From an uncultured bacterium (GTDB lineage: Bacteria > CAIJMQ01), in contig CAZNJA010000001.1 of the NCBI GenBank assembly GCA_964573245.1, positions 1 to 54,762 of the forward strand: DNA of 54,762 nucleotides. The letters are read 5' to 3'. The notes below the pieces were generated by a model. The model saw only the letters and a program-made list of their open reading frames with translations. It did not search any database and was not told the origin of the DNA. Of this stretch, positions 26,102 through 39,278 are shown in pieces (positions within the stretch are counted from its first letter, which is position 1; every line of letters starts with the position of its first letter). A program made the translations under genes and the position numbers.

Positions 26102-26356
26102 TTATTTAGCATTTTTAACTAATCTCTCTTTCTGCGCTCTTGTTAGTTTCTTTATTCTAATCTCTTCTAGAACAGCTTTCTTGGAATGTTTATATTCTTT
26201 ATACCATACCAATTTAACAGGTTTTCTACTTCTGGTGTATTTCGCGCCTTTTCCGTCATTATGCAGTTTAAGCCGTTTTTCCAAATCATTCGTGTAACCT
26301 GTGTAATAAGTGCCCTTACTACACTCAACGATGTACACATAGTACTTGTTTTTCAT
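26102..26356 (-). CDS. Small GIY-YIG nuclease-domain protein (second copy of the family)
   Basis: The start is set at MKNKYYVYIVECSKGTYYTGYTNDLEKRLKLHN (GIY-YIG block). A TAATG stop/start overlap links it to the upstream hydrolase gene. Confidence 0.75.
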   Translation of the reverse strand: MKNKYYVYIVECSKGTYYTGYTNDLEKRLKLHNDGKGAKYTRSRKPVKLVWYKEYKHSKKAVLEEIRIKKLTRAQKERLVKNAK

Positions 26357-27108
26357 TAGCTTGTTAAAGTAGATTCCGTCAGCCACGAATTACACAAAGA
26401 TACAAATTCTTTTGGGCTATTTATATACAAATCTTCCGCGTGCAAGCCGTTTTTTATCATTGCCAATTTCTTCGGGTCTTTGGCTTTTTTGTATAGTGCT
26501 TCCGCATGGTGCTTGAAAATAATCGGGTCTTTTTCTCCCTGAATCAACAAAAGCGGGATAGGGGAGATATTGTCAATAACATTGATGGGTTTTTCCTTTT
26601 TCGCAAACATATTCCCTAGTCGCATCTTAAAAGTATGTTTGCCCGACTTCTTGATTCCGGGGATAAGAGCGTCTTTATACAGGAATCTGTTTTCAATCTT
26701 CTCAAAACTAATCGGCGCGCTTATAGTGATTAAGCCGTTTACATTCTTATGTTTTGCCACTTCAATAATACAAGAAGCGGCTCCCAACGAAAATCCCATT
26801 AAATAAATGCAGGTATAATTCTTTTTAGCATATTCAACGACTGCTTTGATGTCTTCGTGCTCTATAGAGGAAAAACCAAATATGCCGCCGCTGTCTCCAT
26901 GCCCGCGTTGGTCCATTGCAATAATATCGTATAGTTCGAAAAGGTCGTTGGAAAGGTCTAAAAAAGGTTTTGAATCTTTGGACATTGCAAACCCGTGACA
27001 AATAATTAAGACAGCATCCCTGCCGTCTTTTTTAAAATGATTCAAAGCGATTTTCGTTTTATCAAATGATTCTACTGTTTTATTTTGCATTTTGTGATTA
27101 TAAATCAT
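26356..27108 (-). CDS. Alpha/beta-fold hydrolase
   Basis: 250-aa ORF with HGF (oxyanion region), the nucleophile elbow GFSLGA and a late LHAED His region. Confidence 0.75.
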   Translation of the reverse strand: MIYNHKMQNKTVESFDKTKIALNHFKKDGRDAVLIICHGFAMSKDSKPFLDLSNDLFELYDIIAMDQRGHGDSGGIFGFSSIEHEDIKAVVEYAKKNYTCIYLMGFSLGAASCIIEVAKHKNVNGLITISAPISFEKIENRFLYKDALIPGIKKSGKHTFKMRLGNMFAKKEKPINVIDNISPIPLLLIQGEKDPIIFKHHAEALYKKAKDPKKLAMIKNGLHAEDLYINSPKEFVSLCNSWLTESTLTS

Positions 27109-27126: not shown

Positions 27127-27315
27127 TTACCAGGATTTTTTCCCCACAAAGAACCCGATTATGAAACCAATAAGTATCATTAAAGGTAACAAAATAATGC
27201 GGGACATACTTATTTTCCAAAAGAACAGTCTTATGTCAACAACCTGAGTATTTTGAAGCAAAAGAATTAAGAATAAACCTGCCACAACAAGCGCGAAAAT
27301 AACTTTAGGCTTCAT
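27127..27315 (-). CDS. LapA-domain small inner-membrane protein
   Basis: The start is set at MKPKVIF, with GGGAGGA 6 nt upstream. It has two TM segments flanking QNTQVVDIRLFFWKISM, the LapA/DUF1049 pattern. Confidence 0.6.
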   Translation of the reverse strand: MKPKVIFALVVAGLFLILLLQNTQVVDIRLFFWKISMSRIILLPLMILIGFIIGFFVGKKSW

Positions 27316-27321
27316 AACAAA

Positions 27322-27400
27322 TCCTCCCGTAGTACTCCCGTAGGAGTACGGAGTCCCCCCTGTTAGTCTCGCCATTGTATCAGTGGCGGACTAGGGGGGA
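27322..27400 (-). repeat. Two-hairpin leader element L1 (C-run / hairpin / AACAGGGGGGACTCCG / hairpin / CGGGAGGA)
   Basis: The minus sense reads TCCCCCCTAGTCCGCCActgatacaaTGGCGAGACTAACAGGGGGGACTCCGTACTCCtacgGGAGTACTACGGGAGGA, followed by tttgttATG. It is a homolog of 28795-28865. Confidence 0.7.
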
Positions 27401-27469
27401 TTTATTCTCTTATAATTTTAAGTTATTATAACAGGATGTGGTGATTTTGTGGGGGGAAGATATATTATT

Positions 27470-27970
27470 CTATTTATTAAATTCTCTTTCTTTTGCTTGA
27501 AGTAGTTTATTACGTTCTTTTTTAAAATTTTCAATCGTGCTAATCCTACTTCCTTCAGTGCCTCTCATGCTAAATTGACCATTAATTTCTTCTAATAGAT
27601 GTTCGTATAGTAATCTTTCACTATCTTTCCATTCTTTAGGAGTAAAATAAACAGGTATTTTCTCAACTGTATTGTAATAAATAGTAATCCAGTCTTTGTC
27701 TGTTAATAATTTATCGCTCATTTTTTCTTTTATTTCGTCAAGATTTTTAGATATTCCTATTCCCATTTTTAGTATCTCTTTCTGGTATTGTTTATCTGAT
27801 TTTTTTTCATTCAAGCCATAATAAACTTGAAAAAGCAAACAAATAACCAGCAACAAAAGAATTTTTTTCTGCTTTTTCCATAATGCGATTGCTCCAATTA
27901 TTCCAATAATAATTAGAGATAATCCATATAATATTTCCATTAAATTCATGACAATTGTCTCCAAGAACAT
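27470..27970 (-). CDS. Hypothetical two-TM membrane protein with a charged cytoplasmic tail
   Basis: 166-aa ORF with TM segments near the N-terminus and a K/E-rich remainder. I recognise no motif, and the start is uncertain (alternative MNLMEIL). Confidence 0.5.
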   Translation of the reverse strand: MFLETIVMNLMEILYGLSLIIIGIIGAIALWKKQKKILLLLVICLLFQVYYGLNEKKSDKQYQKEILKMGIGISKNLDEIKEKMSDKLLTDKDWITIYYNTVEKIPVYFTPKEWKDSERLLYEHLLEEINGQFSMRGTEGSRISTIENFKKERNKLLQAKEREFNK

Positions 27971-28026
27971 TTATTTTTAGATTACCTTCTCTTATACAAC
28001 TCAATCAATTTCACTTTATTTAATTC

Positions 28027-28788
28027 TTAGAATGGCAAAATATCCTTCAATTTTTCCATTGTCTTTTCACCCTCTTCTTTTGCTTTATCAAGTGTGCCTT
28101 GAGCTGATTTGGTTGCGCCTTTTAAAAGGTCGCCTGCTTCTGTCTGCAGAGAACCCAAATCAAAATCGGCAAGTTTTGCGATTGCTGTATTTATCAGCGC
28201 TTTGGTTATGATCAAGCTGGCAAGTTTTTTAGGGTCTGTTATGTTTTCATATCTATCATCAATATTTAACTCAAATTCTGTTGTTTTGGGTTCTGAACCT
28301 TTAGAATAATCTTTGTAAACAACTTTACCTATTTTTAACTCAAGCACATCTATTTTAAACTCTGCTTTTTGTGTCTTCTCTTCTTGAGATGGGGTTCCCT
28401 TTTCTTTTGTATCCTTAACAACTTTTAGAGAATCAAGGTTAAGTTTACCTTTTTCGTTTTTCACTACAACAAATTCTTTTAGGTTAAGCCTCATTTCTTC
28501 AATGTGCACATTTTTCTTTAGGAATGCACCCAAATCATAATCAACATAGATTTCCGGCATGTCTATCATTAATTTGTCGCTGAACTGGGGCGGGTTGTAT
28601 AACTTCATTTCTTTTATGCTAACCATACTTTTTATTATTCCTACATTCATACTACCAATACTTAAATCCAATCCCGTCATCGTCTTAACACCGGCCGATA
28701 TAGCTTTTTTAGCTATTATGTTTTTAGCGGAGATTAGAGCAACAACTAAAACTACCAGTATTAAAACTACAATTCCCAGCTTTTTCAT
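28027..28788 (-). CDS. Membrane-anchored envelope protein (AsmA-like/DUF748-like, weak)
   Basis: 253-aa ORF with an N-terminal TM (LGIVVLILVVLVVALISA) and a beta-rich body with alternating patterns. GGGAGGAG lies 5 nt upstream of the ATG. Confidence 0.45.
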   Translation of the reverse strand: MKKLGIVVLILVVLVVALISAKNIIAKKAISAGVKTMTGLDLSIGSMNVGIIKSMVSIKEMKLYNPPQFSDKLMIDMPEIYVDYDLGAFLKKNVHIEEMRLNLKEFVVVKNEKGKLNLDSLKVVKDTKEKGTPSQEEKTQKAEFKIDVLELKIGKVVYKDYSKGSEPKTTEFELNIDDRYENITDPKKLASLIITKALINTAIAKLADFDLGSLQTEAGDLLKGATKSAQGTLDKAKEEGEKTMEKLKDILPF

Positions 28789-28794
28789 TTTTAC

Positions 28795-28865
28795 TCCTCC
28801 CGAAGCACTCCCTACGGGAGTGCGAAGTCCCCCTGTTATCCCGACGTTACGTCGGGGTAGGGGGA
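28795..28865 (-). repeat. Two-hairpin leader element L2
   Basis: The minus sense reads CTCCCCCTACCCCGACGtaaCGTCGGGATAACAGGGGGACTTCGCACTCCCgtaGGGAGTGCTTCGGGAGGAG, followed by taaaaATG. It contains the last codons and TAA stop of the upstream trmO-like gene. Confidence 0.7.
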
Positions 28866-29350
28866 GAGTTCCATTCCATTTTTATATCTATTACGGGACT
28901 ACCATCAATTGCGTCCAACCCTTCAACATATAGTTTAGTTCCTTCTACTTTAACTAATTTTACATCCTGAATAGCAATTTTAGATAGCCTGTGAGGTGTT
29001 CTTGAAGCAAAAACTCCTACCTTTTTACCGTCCAGACCCCTGCTAAAAACAGTTCTTACTTTATTGAATTTATGTAAGTAATATACCAAAGTTATATATT
29101 TTTCTTCCTCAAGTTTATATAAAAATGGCTTTTGGGAGGGTAATAATTCTATGCAGGATATACTTTCCTTACCTAAAGTTCCGAAGTCTGTCCCGTTAAG
29201 GTTTAGTTTGTTTTTTACTATGCCTATAGGATATATCTTAAAAGGTTTTGTTTTACCGTATATACAGTAAATGCATATGTTCTTATTATCAATGACAAAA
29301 ATCTCATCTTTTTTAAAACTTTTTTGGCATTTCTGGCAGGTATAATCCAT
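28847..29350 (-). CDS. trmO: TrmO/TsaA-family tRNA methyltransferase-like protein with an N-terminal Cys-rich segment
   Basis: 167-aa ORF. YPIGIVKNK...VGVFASRTPHRLSKIAIQDVKLVKVEG.KLYVEGLDAIDGSPVIDIK matches the UPF0066/TsaA pattern. The C-terminal NSPPTPT* is encoded by element L2. Confidence 0.65.
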   Translation of the reverse strand: MDYTCQKCQKSFKKDEIFVIDNKNICIYCIYGKTKPFKIYPIGIVKNKLNLNGTDFGTLGKESISCIELLPSQKPFLYKLEEEKYITLVYYLHKFNKVRTVFSRGLDGKKVGVFASRTPHRLSKIAIQDVKLVKVEGTKLYVEGLDAIDGSPVIDIKMEWNSPPTPT

Positions 29351-29352
29351 TT

Positions 29353-30903
29353 TTATCTTCTCTTATACAACCCGAACAATTCCGCTTGTTCTAATATATG
29401 TTCTTGCATAGCTTCTTCTAATTGGGCTTTGGTTGTTCCCTCATTTAAATTTAACATCGTATCAATCGCATATATTTTGAAAAAATAGCGGTGTGTTCCC
29501 GAAGGCGGGCAGGGGCCATGGTATTGTTTCCTGCCGGCAGTATTATTTCCCTGCTTGCCAGGGATGCTGTTTTCTTTAATTTCTGAAATTACAGGAATAT
29601 CAAAAACTACCCAATGCACCCAAGTGCCCATCGGCGCATCAGGGTCGTCAACTATCAATGCCAAACTTTTTGTTCCTTCTGGAGCACCTTCAATATTAAG
29701 AGCAGGATTGATATCTTCTCCGTCACATGTGAACTTGCCGGGCATAAGTTGATTATTCTGAAAATCCGGGCTTGTTATTTTCATATTCTTACCTCCTTTT
29801 ATTTGTGAAAAAATAGATAAGTATTCTCCGTAACCTTCTTTTGCTAAATCTTCTTTGGGAATGAAGCGCAATGCTGCAGAATTTATGCAATAGCGCAATC
29901 CTGTGGGTTGGGGACCGTCTTGGAACAAATGCCCCAAATGAGAATCTCCCTGTTTGCTTTTCACCTCGGTTCTTTTCATAAAGAGGGTTCGGTCTTCTTT
30001 TTCAACTATGTTTTCCTCTTCTAAGGGTTTTGTAAAACTTGGCCAGCCTGTTCCCGATTTGAATTTATCTTTCGAACTGAATAATGGTTCTCCTGTAACT
30101 ATATCTACATAGATTCCTTCTCTCTTGTTATTCCAGTATTCATTGTCAAAAGCATTTTCCGTTGCGCATTCCTGGGTAACTTTGTATTGCAGGGGTGTTA
30201 ACTTGGATTCTAATTCTTCGTCAGTTGGTTTCTGGTATTTTTTGTTTTCTTGAGTTTCTTTTTGTTTTTTGAATGTTTCCCATATTTGTTTTATTTTCTT
30301 CAGGAAAGATTCTCTTCCCGATGCTTTTTTATACCTGTCATATCTTTCAGGGTTTTTCTTATAGTAATCCTGATGGTATTCTTCTGCTTTATAGAATATG
30401 GATGCGGGAATTATCTCTGTAACTATTGGCTTTTTATGTATTCCGGATTTTTCCAGTTCTTCTTTTGATTTTTCTGCAAGTTTCTTTTGTTCTTCTGTAT
30501 GGTAAAAAATAGCTGTTTTATATTGACTTCCTTTATCGTTAAACTGTCCTTTGGGATCTGTGGGGTCTATTTGTAGCCAAAAAATATCCAGAAGCTGGGA
30601 ATATGAAATTTTTGAAGGGTCATATGTAATCTGCGCTACTTCCCTGTGCTCTGTTGTGCCCGAACTAACATCTTTATATGTAGGGTCTTTGGTAGCTCCT
30701 CCCATATATCCTGCTTGTACGTCAATGACTCCCGGCTGGAATTCAAATACGGGCTCCATACACCAAAAACAACCTCCTGCAAAAGTGGCTTTTTCCATTT
30801 TTGTTTCAGCGTTTGAATTTTGCGGCATCATATAGAGTAGAAATACTAATATAAAAATAGTAATACTTTTAACAAGAAATCTCAAATTACTTACTTTTAC
30901 CAT
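29353..30903 (-). CDS. msrAB: Secreted MsrA-MsrB-PEBP(YbhB-like) triple-domain protein
   Basis: 516-aa ORF with a signal peptide. MsrA motif: [11 protein letters not shown]. MsrB motifs: [30 protein letters not shown] motifs: [15 protein letters not shown] and [13 protein letters not shown]. Confidence 0.85.
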
Positions 30904-31124
30904 TTTTTTTATTTTGCTTGGATTTTATTTTACCTATTTTCTCCTGAAGTATCCCCATAGGGCATATAGTACGCCAAGCGCGGTGTTTCATTGTAGTTCC
31001 CAAAATAATTGATATGATATGTTATAAGGCACATACTTACAAAAACAGCTCCTATTGTGGTTAAGTTGCCACCGGTAGGAACTATTCTATATTATTTGCG
31101 ATTTTTTCATGTATTCACCTTTGA

Positions 31125-38060: not shown

Positions 38061-38834
38061 ATGGATATCCATATATTGACTCTATTCCCGGGCATGTTTC
38101 GTGGAGTTCTAGAAGAAAGCATAATAAAAAGAGCGCAAGAAAAGGGGCTTGTTAAAATATTTTTGCATGATTTGAGAGAATTTGGTTTGGGTAAACGTAA
38201 AACTACAGACGACTATCCTTACGGCGGCGGCGCCGGAATGATTATGCGGATAGAGCCCGTGTATAACGCTATAAAAAAAATCAAGGCGAAAAATACCCGC
38301 CATTGCAGAACAGGCGGGCAGGAAAGAAAGAAAAATAAAATCAGGACTATTTTACTCACTCCGCAAGGAGAAATTTTAAACGAGGGAAAAAGCAAAAAAT
38401 TGGCAAAGGAATCATCGGTTATCCTTATATGCGGACATTATAAGGGATTGGACGAGAGAATACGTTTAAATCTTATTGACGAAGAAATATCCGTAGGCGA
38501 TTATGTTCTAAGCGGCGGAGAAATTGCCGCTATGGTTGTTGTGGATACGATAACAAGACTTATTCCTGGAGTTTTGGGGAACAAAGAATCCATGCGGTTG
38601 GATTCCTTTCATCAAAATATTTTGGAGGGGCCGTTATACACAAGACCCGTCGAATTCAAAGGAATGAAAGTTCCAGACTCTCTTTTATCGGGAAATCATG
38701 GGCAAATCTTCGATTGGAGAAGAAAAGAAGCGTTAAGGAGAACTTATTTAAAAAGACCCGAACTTTTTAATGTGATTAAGTTAAGCGAAAAAGACAAACA
38801 AATGTTAGAAGAAATAAAAAAAGAAAAACTGTAA
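38061..38834 (+). CDS. trmD: tRNA (guanine37-N1)-methyltransferase TrmD, with an in-frame hairpin insertion
   Basis: 257-aa ORF with MDIHILTLFPGMF, YPYGGGAGM, ICGHYKGLDERI, GDYVLSGGE and LLSGNH motifs. An extra NTRHCRTGGQER segment precedes the conserved LLTPQG. Confidence 0.93.
   Translation: MDIHILTLFPGMFRGVLEESIIKRAQEKGLVKIFLHDLREFGLGKRKTTDDYPYGGGAGMIMRIEPVYNAIKKIKAKNTRHCRTGGQERKKNKIRTILLTPQGEILNEGKSKKLAKESSVILICGHYKGLDERIRLNLIDEEISVGDYVLSGGEIAAMVVVDTITRLIPGVLGNKESMRLDSFHQNILEGPLYTRPVEFKGMKVPDSLLSGNHGQIFDWRRKEALRRTYLKRPELFNVIKLSEKDKQMLEEIKKEKL
38296..38322 (+). repeat. CCCGCC-N11-GGCGGGCAGG hairpin inside the trmD coding sequence
   Basis: aCCCGCCattgcagaacaGGCGGGCAGG has the same arms, loop length and 3' CAGG as the intergenic hairpin at 39252-39278. 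It is translated as TRHCRTGGQ. Confidence 0.6.
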
Positions 38835-39251: not shown

Positions 39252-39278
39252 CCCGCCACTACTACAACGGCGGGCAGG
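39252..39278 (+). repeat. CCCGCC-N11-GGCGGGCAGG hairpin 7 nt after the rplS stop
   Basis: CCCGCCactactacaacGGCGGGCAGGG. The loop resembles the inner loop of L1 (ACTGATACAAT). There is no U-run, so it is not a classical intrinsic terminator. Confidence 0.6.

Follow-up and report, generated by a model that had tools for sequence, protein, structure and literature searches.

The DNA analysed here, a 54,762-nucleotide stretch ('the window'), belongs to the 1.46-Mb genome of an uncultured bacterium. On its minus strand, two neighbouring genes are each preceded by a structured leader: L1 (27400–27322) lies upstream of a LapA-domain gene and L2 (28865–28794) upstream of a gene for a membrane-anchored protein, identified by Pfam as LapA_dom and DUF748/AsmA-like, respectively. 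Homologues of the latter are named 'AsmA family protein [Candidatus Ratteibacteria bacterium]', and such names place the organism in the lineage Candidatus Ratteibacteria. The original prediction, made from the letters of the window, saw in these leaders a shared regulator of envelope genes with covarying stems and a switch that sequesters the Shine–Dalgarno (SD) sequence; its fallback was REP-like insertions that happen to carry an SD. The fallback is essentially right and closer to the data than the switch. L1 and L2 are two instances of a palindromic repeat of modular build, low in copy number and lineage-restricted, for which the name 'A-B element' is coined here, and we hold with moderate confidence that this is a mobile or copy-pasted mosaic acting as a portable leader. 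The features of the locus are as follows.

27425–27433, minus strand: extended −10-like box TGTTATAAT, read from the sequence, in the single-copy spacer upstream of L1.
27401–27414, minus strand: 5′ box of L1, TATAAGAGAATAAA, resembling an SD plus spacer; similar boxes occur at unrelated loci.
27355–27400, minus strand: module A of L1, with C-run/G-run outer stem, TAGTC/GACTA stem, bulged ACA and apical hairpin (from fold, family pattern and pair counts).
27368–27389, minus strand: nested foreign dispersed palindrome CCGCCACTGATACAATGGCGAG in L1, displacing the usual GTTTT..AAAAC apex of module A.
27328–27354, minus strand: module B of L1, comprising ACTCCG, the hairpin GTACTCC-UACG-GGAGTAC and TACG (62.8 bits with covariance model R1, see below).
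27313–27327, minus strand: SD GGAGGA (27327–27322) and ATG (27315–27313) of the LapA-domain gene; the SD is ancestral.
27127–27315, minus strand: gene for a LapA-domain membrane protein of 62 amino acids (aa) (Pfam PF06305, E = 1.2e-8).
28829–28865, minus strand: module A of L2, with C-run/G-run stem, bulged ACA and apical hairpin (from sequence, fold and family pattern).
28840–28856, minus strand: nested 17-nt palindrome CCCGACGTAACGTCGGG in L2, whose loop (28849–28847) is the TAA stop codon of the TrmO-like gene.
28801–28828, minus strand: module B of L2, comprising ACTTCG, the hairpin GCACTCCC-GTA-GGGAGTGC and TTCG (53 bits with model R1).
28786–28800, minus strand: SD GGAGGAG (28800–28794) and ATG (28788–28786) of the AsmA-like gene, compared below with element-free orthologues.
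28027–28788, minus strand: gene for a DUF748/AsmA-like membrane-anchored protein of 253 aa (Pfam and homologue names).
28847–29350, minus strand: accessory gene with Zn-ribbon and TrmO_N domains (Pfam) upstream of L2, with its last codons and stop codon contained in L2.

The common layout that had been claimed for the two leaders is real, and every statement about their letters was borne out on reading them. In gene sense, L1 runs TCCCCCC-TAGTC-CGCCA..TGGCG-A-GACTA-ACA-GGGGGG-ACTCCG-(GTACTCC UACG GGAGTAC)-TACG-GGAGGA-TTTGTT-ATG, and L2 runs TCCCCC-TA-(CCCCGACG TAA CGTCGGG)-ATAACA-GGGGG-ACTTCG-(GCACTCCC GTA GGGAGTGC)-TTCG-GGAGGAG-TAAAA-ATG. RNAfold predicts the same architecture for both. Hairpin A combines an outer stem between the C-run and the G-run with a bulged ACA of 3 nt and an apical hairpin; immediately after it comes hairpin B, whose base helix is lengthened by pairing of the linker CUYC with the SD GGAG, which leaves a 4-nt UNCG-like bulge (UACG in L1, UUCG in L2). 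The folds have energies of −40 to −46 kcal/mol and z-scores of −4.2 to −6.3, and none of 200 dinucleotide shuffles was as stable. The hairpin A interiors had been called perfectly paired in both copies; this fails for L1, whose inner hairpin has a bulged A and an internal mismatch.

Five genomes of one family were compared, namely that of the window (G000), three of the same genus (G001–G003) and one of a second genus (G004); together with four from other classes they make up a phylum set of nine. To these were added metagenome loci (L138, L160, L172, L228–L232 and L234), of which L230 and L231 are two assemblies of one lineage. A covariance model of module B (R1; GGGACTYCG-hairpin-CTWCG), built on an alignment (A2) of 16 copies, matches only L1 and L2 across the whole of G000 (E = 5e-12 and 1e-9), so that their likeness is not due to chance. 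The same model has 7 matches in G001, 11 in G002, 4 in G003 and 1 in G004; the four phylum-set genomes from other classes have none. The pattern CCCCCTA-N(6-40)-AACAGGGGG occurs 4, 10, 11 and 1 times in G000–G003 and is all but absent from 57 other genomes. Scanning metagenome contigs for exact words yielded at least five further true copies among the 80 loci listed, and a look-up of AsmA-like homologues gave one more, present in L230 and L231. The A-B element is restricted to a few uncultured Ratteibacteria with genomes of 1.3–1.5 Mb. The comparison with Rfam that had been proposed finds no described family: in Rfam 15, tRNAs alone pass the gathering score in the window, and at E ≤ 10 the best matches within 27250–28950 are noise (RAGATH-10, 18.1 bits against a gathering score of 41.2; RAGATH-32, 12.6 against 41.8).

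A typical copy consists of a G[A/G]GAATAWA box, module A, module B and a final GG. Boxes of this type lie just 5′ of the C-run in most copies; at unrelated loci, GAGAATAAA, GAGAATATA, GAGAATAGA or GGAAATAGA abuts TCCCCCC on its 5′ side. The consensus of module A is TCCCCCC-TA-(variable hairpin)-TA-ACA-GGGGGG and that of module B is ACTYCG-(CACTCC..GGAGTG hairpin)-CTWCG; an A-like hairpin ending in ..ACAGGGGGGAC precedes nearly every B module. A B module identical to that of L1 stands at an unrelated locus in G002 (C37:16090). The build is a mosaic: there are tandem B-B units, placed head to tail and sharing one G-run, alternative partner hairpins, and hairpin cores in either orientation. Some copies are followed by arrays of the heptamer GGTAAWT, and others carry a third hairpin type (CCCAAAGAG..CTTTGGG) on their 5′ side.

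The distribution within genomes is uneven. Six of the seven copies in G001 lie within 27 kb (L041/L042, G001:C11:554–582 kb), a region that also holds restriction-modification-like giant open reading frames (ORFs), a RelE/ParE-like toxin, an NYN-domain gene and other accessory genes. Module A also occurs alone, in CATTTC..GAAATG form (G000 C30:7126–7157 and C48:1624–1655; L002, G002:C1:12404), with no consistent orientation to its neighbours; these solitary copies are embedded in AACCG-rich repeats, and one lies 10 nt upstream of a tRNA gene.

Complete copies are strongly polar. According to a simple ORF caller, 26 of 27 copies have a downstream gene that runs in the same direction as the element, and for the upstream gene the figure is 21 of 25. 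The sequence GGAG(G)-N(5-8)-ATG begins right after CTWCG in at least 13 copies. A structured leader in gene sense that ends at the SD had been predicted from the two window copies; it is real and extends to the family, and the covariance-model search, for which random orientation had been named as the adverse outcome, gave the opposite. On the 5′ side, the stop codon of the upstream gene lies inside module A, or 0–2 nt before it, in several copies. A transcription terminator at this position was rejected, because the elements have no U-tract and a terminator scan has no match at them. A sigma-70 scan found no promoter within the elements.

Four comparisons of filled and empty orthologous sites place the insertion exactly 5′ of a pre-existing SD. 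The AsmA-like site was compared between G000 and G001, G003 and L232, the LapA site between G000 and G001, and the rpiB site between G001, G003 and L160 and G000:

AsmA-like site. Empty: G001 ..GAGAGGTGGAAAAATG; G003 ..CTGGAGGAGAAAAATG; L232 ..AATGGGGAGGGAGAATAAAGATG. Filled: G000 ..CTTCG, then GGAGGAGTAAAAATG.
LapA site. Empty: G001 AAAAGGAGAGTTTATTATG. Filled: G000 CTACG, then GGAGGATTTGTTATG.
rpiB site. Empty: G000 GTATAGGAGGATATTTTACAATG. Filled: G001, G003 and L160 CTTCG, then GGAGGATAAAAATG.

The element-free LapA orthologue of G001, whose protein is 89% identical, has AAAGGAGAGTTTATTATG in the same register; since its SD is present without the element, the SD at the L1 site is ancestral and was not imported. 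Element-free AsmA-like orthologues carry GAGGTGGAAAAATG or GGAGGAGAAAAATG, and in L232 the point of insertion of L2 is immediately 5′ of the SD. The upstream side of L2 was altered as well. The TrmO-like protein ends in ..MKWNGEGE* in L232, which has no element, and in ..MEWNSPPTPT* in G000; as read from these sequences, L2 rewrote the C-terminus and supplied a new stop codon in the loop of hairpin A. The TrmO-like gene itself is absent from the L2-equivalent position in G001–G004.

Occupancy differs from site to site. The AsmA-like site is filled in two of nine lineages, G000 and L138 (protein 78% identical), and empty in G001 (77%), G003, L228, L229, L230, L232 and L234. The LapA site is filled in two of three lineages (G000 and L230; empty in G001), the rpiB site in four (G001, G002, G003 and L160/L172; empty in G000), and the Iso_dh site in G001 and G002 (empty in G000). 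The presence of the element does not track relatedness, which fits a mobile or frequently exchanged element. Conservation at orthologous genes, as expected of a riboswitch or thermometer, was not found at the AsmA-like, LapA or rpiB sites, and a conserved regulator of the LapA and AsmA-like genes, as originally envisaged, is contradicted by their element-free orthologues in G001, G003 and five metagenome lineages. The element is nevertheless retained across species at orthologous rpiB, LapA, AsmA-like and Iso_dh sites.

L1 and its 60-nt upstream spacer are ~95% identical between G000 and L230; for the 1.2-kb block of coding sequence around them, the figure is 82%. In G000 the spacer occurs once. 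It contains, ~25 nt upstream of L1, a perfect extended −10-like TGTTATAAT, a promoter-like feature found at this copy only and conserved in L230. To judge from its letters, TGTTATAAT may be the promoter of L1, in which case L1 would be a true 5′ untranslated region (5′ UTR). At this locus at least, the sequence seems to be under constraint, and L1 probably is a real 5′ UTR.

The covarying stems of the original prediction have a different origin. For hairpin A, what had been taken as compensation between L1 and L2 is replacement: the two interiors are nested copies of two other, unrelated dispersed palindromes. The palindrome inside L2, CCCGACGTWACGTCGGG, occurs at 7 loci in G000. The L1 interior belongs to a CCGCCA-N-TGGCGG family with tens of copies, and its core recurs identically at C3:11092 and C13:15656. 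The ordinary GTTTT..AAAAC apex is kept in the orthologous L1 of L230 (GTTTTTCTTTCGCAAAAC at the position of the nested palindrome) and the orthologous L2 of L138 (GTTTTCTTGGGAAAAC). Hairpin apices serve as targets or replacement sites for other small palindromes, which accounts for the differing interiors. Across 22 copies of module A, 95.5% of the stated pairs form, double changes occur in 6 of the 8 inner pairs, and none of 500 shuffles reaches the score; this covariation mostly reflects a split between two subfamilies, CATTTC..GAAATG and GTTTTN..NAAAAC. Module B has a single covarying pair (C-G in 11 copies, U-A in 4, a mismatch in 1).

Several hairpin cores are also found either way round between fixed linkers: GCACTCCCGTAGGGAGTGC of L2, for instance, is GCACTCCCTACGGGAGTGC in G003 (C65:1361). 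Loops are likewise swapped between linkers of fixed orientation (GTA/TAC, TGAAG/CTTCA and TTTT/AAAA; compare G001:C11:555853 with 581219). Such reverse-complement cores suggest that palindromic units were inverted, or inserted in either orientation. They point to events at the DNA level and count against loop-specific recognition. Further palindrome loci in G000 are C3:30081, C5:21988, C6:22239, C10:26314, C82:5207 and C2:29165, as well as 38296–38322 and 39252–39278 of the window. The CCGCCA-N(8-12)-TGGCGG family has tens of loci, some within genes, and both it and the CCCGACGTWACGTCGGG family nest inside other hairpins.

The predicted effect on the ribosome-binding site (RBS) is one of partial occlusion. 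At 37 °C, the probability that the SD is unpaired is 0.11–0.38 in seven of nine filled sites and 0.52 and 0.65 in two copies of G003, as against 0.54–0.92 at four orthologous sites that are empty; at 15 °C these values change little. To force the SD open takes 2.1 kcal/mol for L2 and 4.4 kcal/mol for L1 in silico. The proposed complementarity between the 5′ arm of hairpin B and the SD exists, but the minimum-free-energy fold has the SD paired to the linker CUYC, just 5′ of hairpin B, instead. Pairing with the 5′ arm requires the loss of hairpin B at a computed cost of 6.3–10.5 kcal/mol; no bistability is evident, and the mutually exclusive pairings on which the switch depended are not supported. 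The models thus predict a mild constitutive occlusion of the SD and not a poised two-state device. A relay for translational coupling was also rejected, as the CUYC:GGAG helix stays intact when the 5′ half of module A is blocked in imitation of a terminating ribosome.

In the mechanism that we favour, the A-B element would spread as DNA, perhaps with the help of a hairpin-recognising Y1/HUH transposase acting in trans, or by recombination through the near-identical translation-initiation regions of this AT-rich genome. It lands in a single polarity between a stop codon and the SD of the next gene, usually exactly 5′ of GGAG. Once transcribed, it would place two stable hairpins directly upstream of the RBS; the CUYC:GGAG pairing, worth 2–4 kcal/mol, would mildly lower initiation, and the hairpins probably also insulate or stabilise the mRNA. 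The predictions contain no evidence of ligand or temperature sensing.

Several points weigh against this mechanism. Within ~1.5 kb of the Y1_Tnp matches (one in G000, four in G002 and two in G003) there is neither an A nor a B module, and G001 contains seven copies of the element yet no Y1_Tnp match. Of the marks of a MITE, which are terminal inverted repeats and a target-site duplication of fixed length, the inverted repeats are absent, as the ends TCCCCCCTAG.. and ..GTGCTTCG are not inverted repeats of each other. Direct repeats flank some copies (e.g. GGGGGAAATAAA / GGGAGAAATAAA at G002:C52:2334), but their length and position vary and there is no consistent target-site duplication; the best flank repeat averages 6.6 nt, compared with 5.4 nt in mismatched flank pairs. 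Two to eleven copies per genome are few for a selfish repeat. Furthermore, the polarity, the retention at rpiB in four lineages, the conservation of L1 above that of coding sequence and the enrichment of hydrophobic proteins described below are all expected of a selected cis-regulatory motif, so that to regard any regulatory effect as a by-product may be too dismissive.

RAYT-like Y1 (HUH) proteins of 224–446 aa, with N-termini of the M(P/A)R..I....YH(V/I)..RG type, are encoded at L044, L046 and L048 (G002), L045 (G000:C12:23931) and L047 (G003), and a classical IS200/IS605 TnpA-TnpB pair lies on G003:C1. Such RAYT-like and IS200-like Y1 genes are thus found in G002, G003 and, weakly, G000. 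A linkage to RAYT or IS200/IS605 was rejected, since A or B modules do not flank any of them within ~1.5 kb. An integron-like cassette was considered because each copy in the window sits at the 3′ border of an accessory gene missing from G001. It was likewise rejected: the core sites R″ RYYYAAC and R′ GTTRRRY are missing (..CTAAC and ..ATAAC occur in the element without a GTTRRRY partner), what pairs at the ends is a C-run with a G-run, no accessory gene accompanies the element at rpiB or in L138, and L232 has the TrmO-like gene but not the element.

The original link to envelope genes survives in part. The downstream genes are mixed and encode RpiB, Iso_dh (isocitrate dehydrogenase-like), Nitro_FeMo-Co, TPR, FMN_red (FMN reductase-like), DUF502, LapA, AsmA-like and several small unannotated proteins, together with PhoH-like, PRPP-synthetase-like and TsaC-like proteins recognised by N-terminal sequence alone. 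By a crude Kyte–Doolittle test, an N-terminal hydrophobic segment is present at 9 of 17 independent sites (two of them paralogous), compared with 25% of 1039 ORFs of G000 (p = 0.013), and at 8 of 11 SD-adjacent sites (p = 0.0013). This is a modest excess, and rpiB, Iso_dh, FMN_red, Nitro_FeMo-Co and TPR genes likewise have copies in front of them. With small numbers and crude tools, the membrane/envelope bias is suggestive only. It could reflect a regulon, or spread through similar initiation regions (GGAGGATAAAAATGAAAAA..), or better tolerance of attenuation by genes for membrane proteins. Together with polarity and local conservation, it leaves real room for an exapted regulatory role.

One form of such a role, doubtful but worth keeping in view, is that of a mobile 'intercistronic cassette' recruited by the host as a portable attenuator or operator that preferentially governs membrane and envelope proteins. 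It would often bring a stop codon at its 5′ edge and meet or bring an SD at its 3′ edge; with both, it could enter the operons of a compact genome without killing either neighbour.

It is also conceivable, although we think it unlikely, that the element is an exapted operator whose linkers (UAACAGGGGGGACUYCG and CUWCGGGAGG), with the bulged ACA, bind a trans-acting protein or small RNA and so define a small, membrane/envelope-rich regulon in the manner of the Neisseria REP2 repeats discussed below. Invariant linkers beside stems and loops that vary or even invert would suit a binding site of this kind, as would the polarity, the hydrophobic excess, the retention at four orthologous sites, the conservation of L1 and its spacer above the coding flanks, and the REP2 precedent (PMC3184786, section 11). 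On the other hand, close relatives have the same genes without the element, and ordinary cytosolic enzymes are found among the downstream genes. The sample is small and includes some paralogous sites, both the ORF calls and the test for hydrophobicity are crude, no candidate for the factor emerged, and identity at unrelated loci could mean recent copying.

Distinctly less probable is a role in mRNA fate, in which the element would be an intercistronic processing or stability element: after cleavage in the linker, hairpin A would guard the 3′ end of the upstream message and hairpin B the 5′ end of the downstream one, so that the stoichiometry of neighbouring genes would be uncoupled, as by the REP stabilisers of Escherichia coli operons. 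This would agree with the stability of the hairpins, the conserved single-stranded linker between them, the co-orientation of most upstream genes and the copies that fill the whole gap between a stop codon and an SD. However, many copies lie 60–240 nt past the upstream stop, and L1 seems to have its own promoter-like TGTTATAAT and need not be intercistronic at all. Highly improbable is an RNA thermometer or riboswitch in which ACUCC pairs with either GGGAGU of hairpin B or the SD, and temperature or a ligand switches translation: the complementarities exist and the SD is partly paired in the predicted ensembles, but the states are far from isoenergetic, SD accessibility is much the same at 15 °C as at 37 °C, a pocket-like core is not conserved (apices and loops have been exchanged, inverted or nested with other repeats), occurrence among orthologues is patchy, and Rfam is silent even at E ≤ 10.

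The surroundings of the two leaders include a variable gene slot between the AsmA-like and LapA genes, with two further features:

27470–27970, minus strand: ORF166, an accessory gene in the slot.
27982–28012, minus strand: 31-nt duplicate of the 3′ end of the PEBP gene (GAAATTGATTGAGTTGTATAAGAGAAGGTAA), after the AsmA-like stop codon.

The slot is occupied by ORF166 in G000, which has no homologue in G001–G004, by a DUF5677 gene in L230 (3402–4160), and by 50 nt in G001 (C4:129509–129558). Its right flank, consisting of spacer, L1 and LapA, is conserved. Its left edge is the PEBP fragment, which sits ahead of ORF166 and has its counterpart at 29357–29386 (minus strand); a similar fragment follows the AsmA-like stop in L230, which makes the duplication old. 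The window also encodes a 516-aa Msr-PEBP fusion, whose MsrA-MsrB portion (29803–30922) is without equivalent in G001, the aligned blocks there being contiguous; a stand-alone PEBP of 143–171 aa is found in the relatives L138 and L228–L234. A small GIY-YIG gene (26102–26386) overlaps the end of an alpha/beta-hydrolase gene. It is in the same place in L230 (5347–5610) and elsewhere on the contig in L138 (4379–4654).

To our knowledge, very few bacteria are known to have small dispersed repeats that also serve as shared leaders, Neisseria REP2 being the clearest case. The A-B element, previously undescribed and from uncultured Ratteibacteria, unites three unusual traits, namely strict polarity, insertion exactly at the RBS, and hairpins that host other repeats. 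If it modulates translation, it would show how a regulatory leader can pass by copying from one gene to another; if it is indeed a recruited intercistronic cassette, it would be a mobile 5′ leader building a regulon in an uncultured phylum. For annotators, there are three lessons: a leader that looks 'riboswitch-like' in such a genome may be a repeat, C-termini can be rewritten by repeats (as in the TrmO-like gene), and module replacement can pass for covariation.

By analogy, the nearest described counterpart is Neisseria REP2 in behaviour, and the mosaic BOX and bacterial interspersed mosaic elements (BIMEs) as regards construction. The primary descriptions of REP2 are reportedly those of Parkhill (2000) and Morelle (2003). 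Like REP2, the A-B element is a low-copy intergenic repeat with two stem-loops just upstream of unrelated ORFs, forms a shared 5′ UTR and lacks terminal inverted repeats. REP2 repeats occur in ~25 copies of 120–150 bp, with two stem-loops, an RBS, a promoter and an ATG, upstream of unrelated, co-regulated genes (PMC3184786, section 11). The hallmark of a repeat that supplies or abuts the RBS with two stem-loops is shared, given the copies (at least 13) that end at GGAG-N(5-8)-ATG. The A-B core, in contrast, measures ~65 nt and usually abuts a pre-existing SD, with a promoter-like box upstream of L1 only; the phylum is different, no sequence relationship is expected, and for REP2 co-regulation has been shown.

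BIMEs of enterobacteria contain REP units in alternating orientation and in hundreds of copies, and BOX elements of Streptococcus pneumoniae have the form boxA-boxB(n)-boxC. The A-B element shares with both its modular hairpins, intergenic position, stable predicted RNA/DNA hairpins and variable presence between relatives; unlike them, it is strictly polar to the downstream gene, precisely SD-adjacent and limited to 2–11 copies per genome. REP sequences have a GT(A/G)G head just 5′ of the palindrome and usually exceed 100 copies per genome, in clusters of alternating orientation (PMC2817692); REP/REPIN elements are mobilised by RAYT (Y1/HUH) transposases (PMC2817692, PMC3333891, PMC3116915). 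GC-rich imperfect palindromes, conserved flanking 'heads', compensating stems and the RAYT-like Y1 genes in some genomes of the genus are points of resemblance. However, the heads of the A-B element are TCCCCCCTA, ACAGGGGGGACTYCG and CTWCGGG, with no GTAG or GTGG before the stems, and it has no repeat-flanked RAYT gene and no inverted doublets, a low copy number, and B modules in tandem head to tail. In having an upstream CUYC tract that pairs with the SD GGAG at a hairpin base, it recalls SD-sequestering thermometers (ROSE, fourU) and translational riboswitches; it differs from these in lacking a near-isoenergetic alternative fold and a conserved sensing core, in being mosaic and mobile, and in its patchy occurrence at orthologues. 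Overall, the A-B element looks like a mosaic repeat of two hairpins, polar and SD-adjacent, with the role of a portable leader, and not like an envelope-dedicated sensor.

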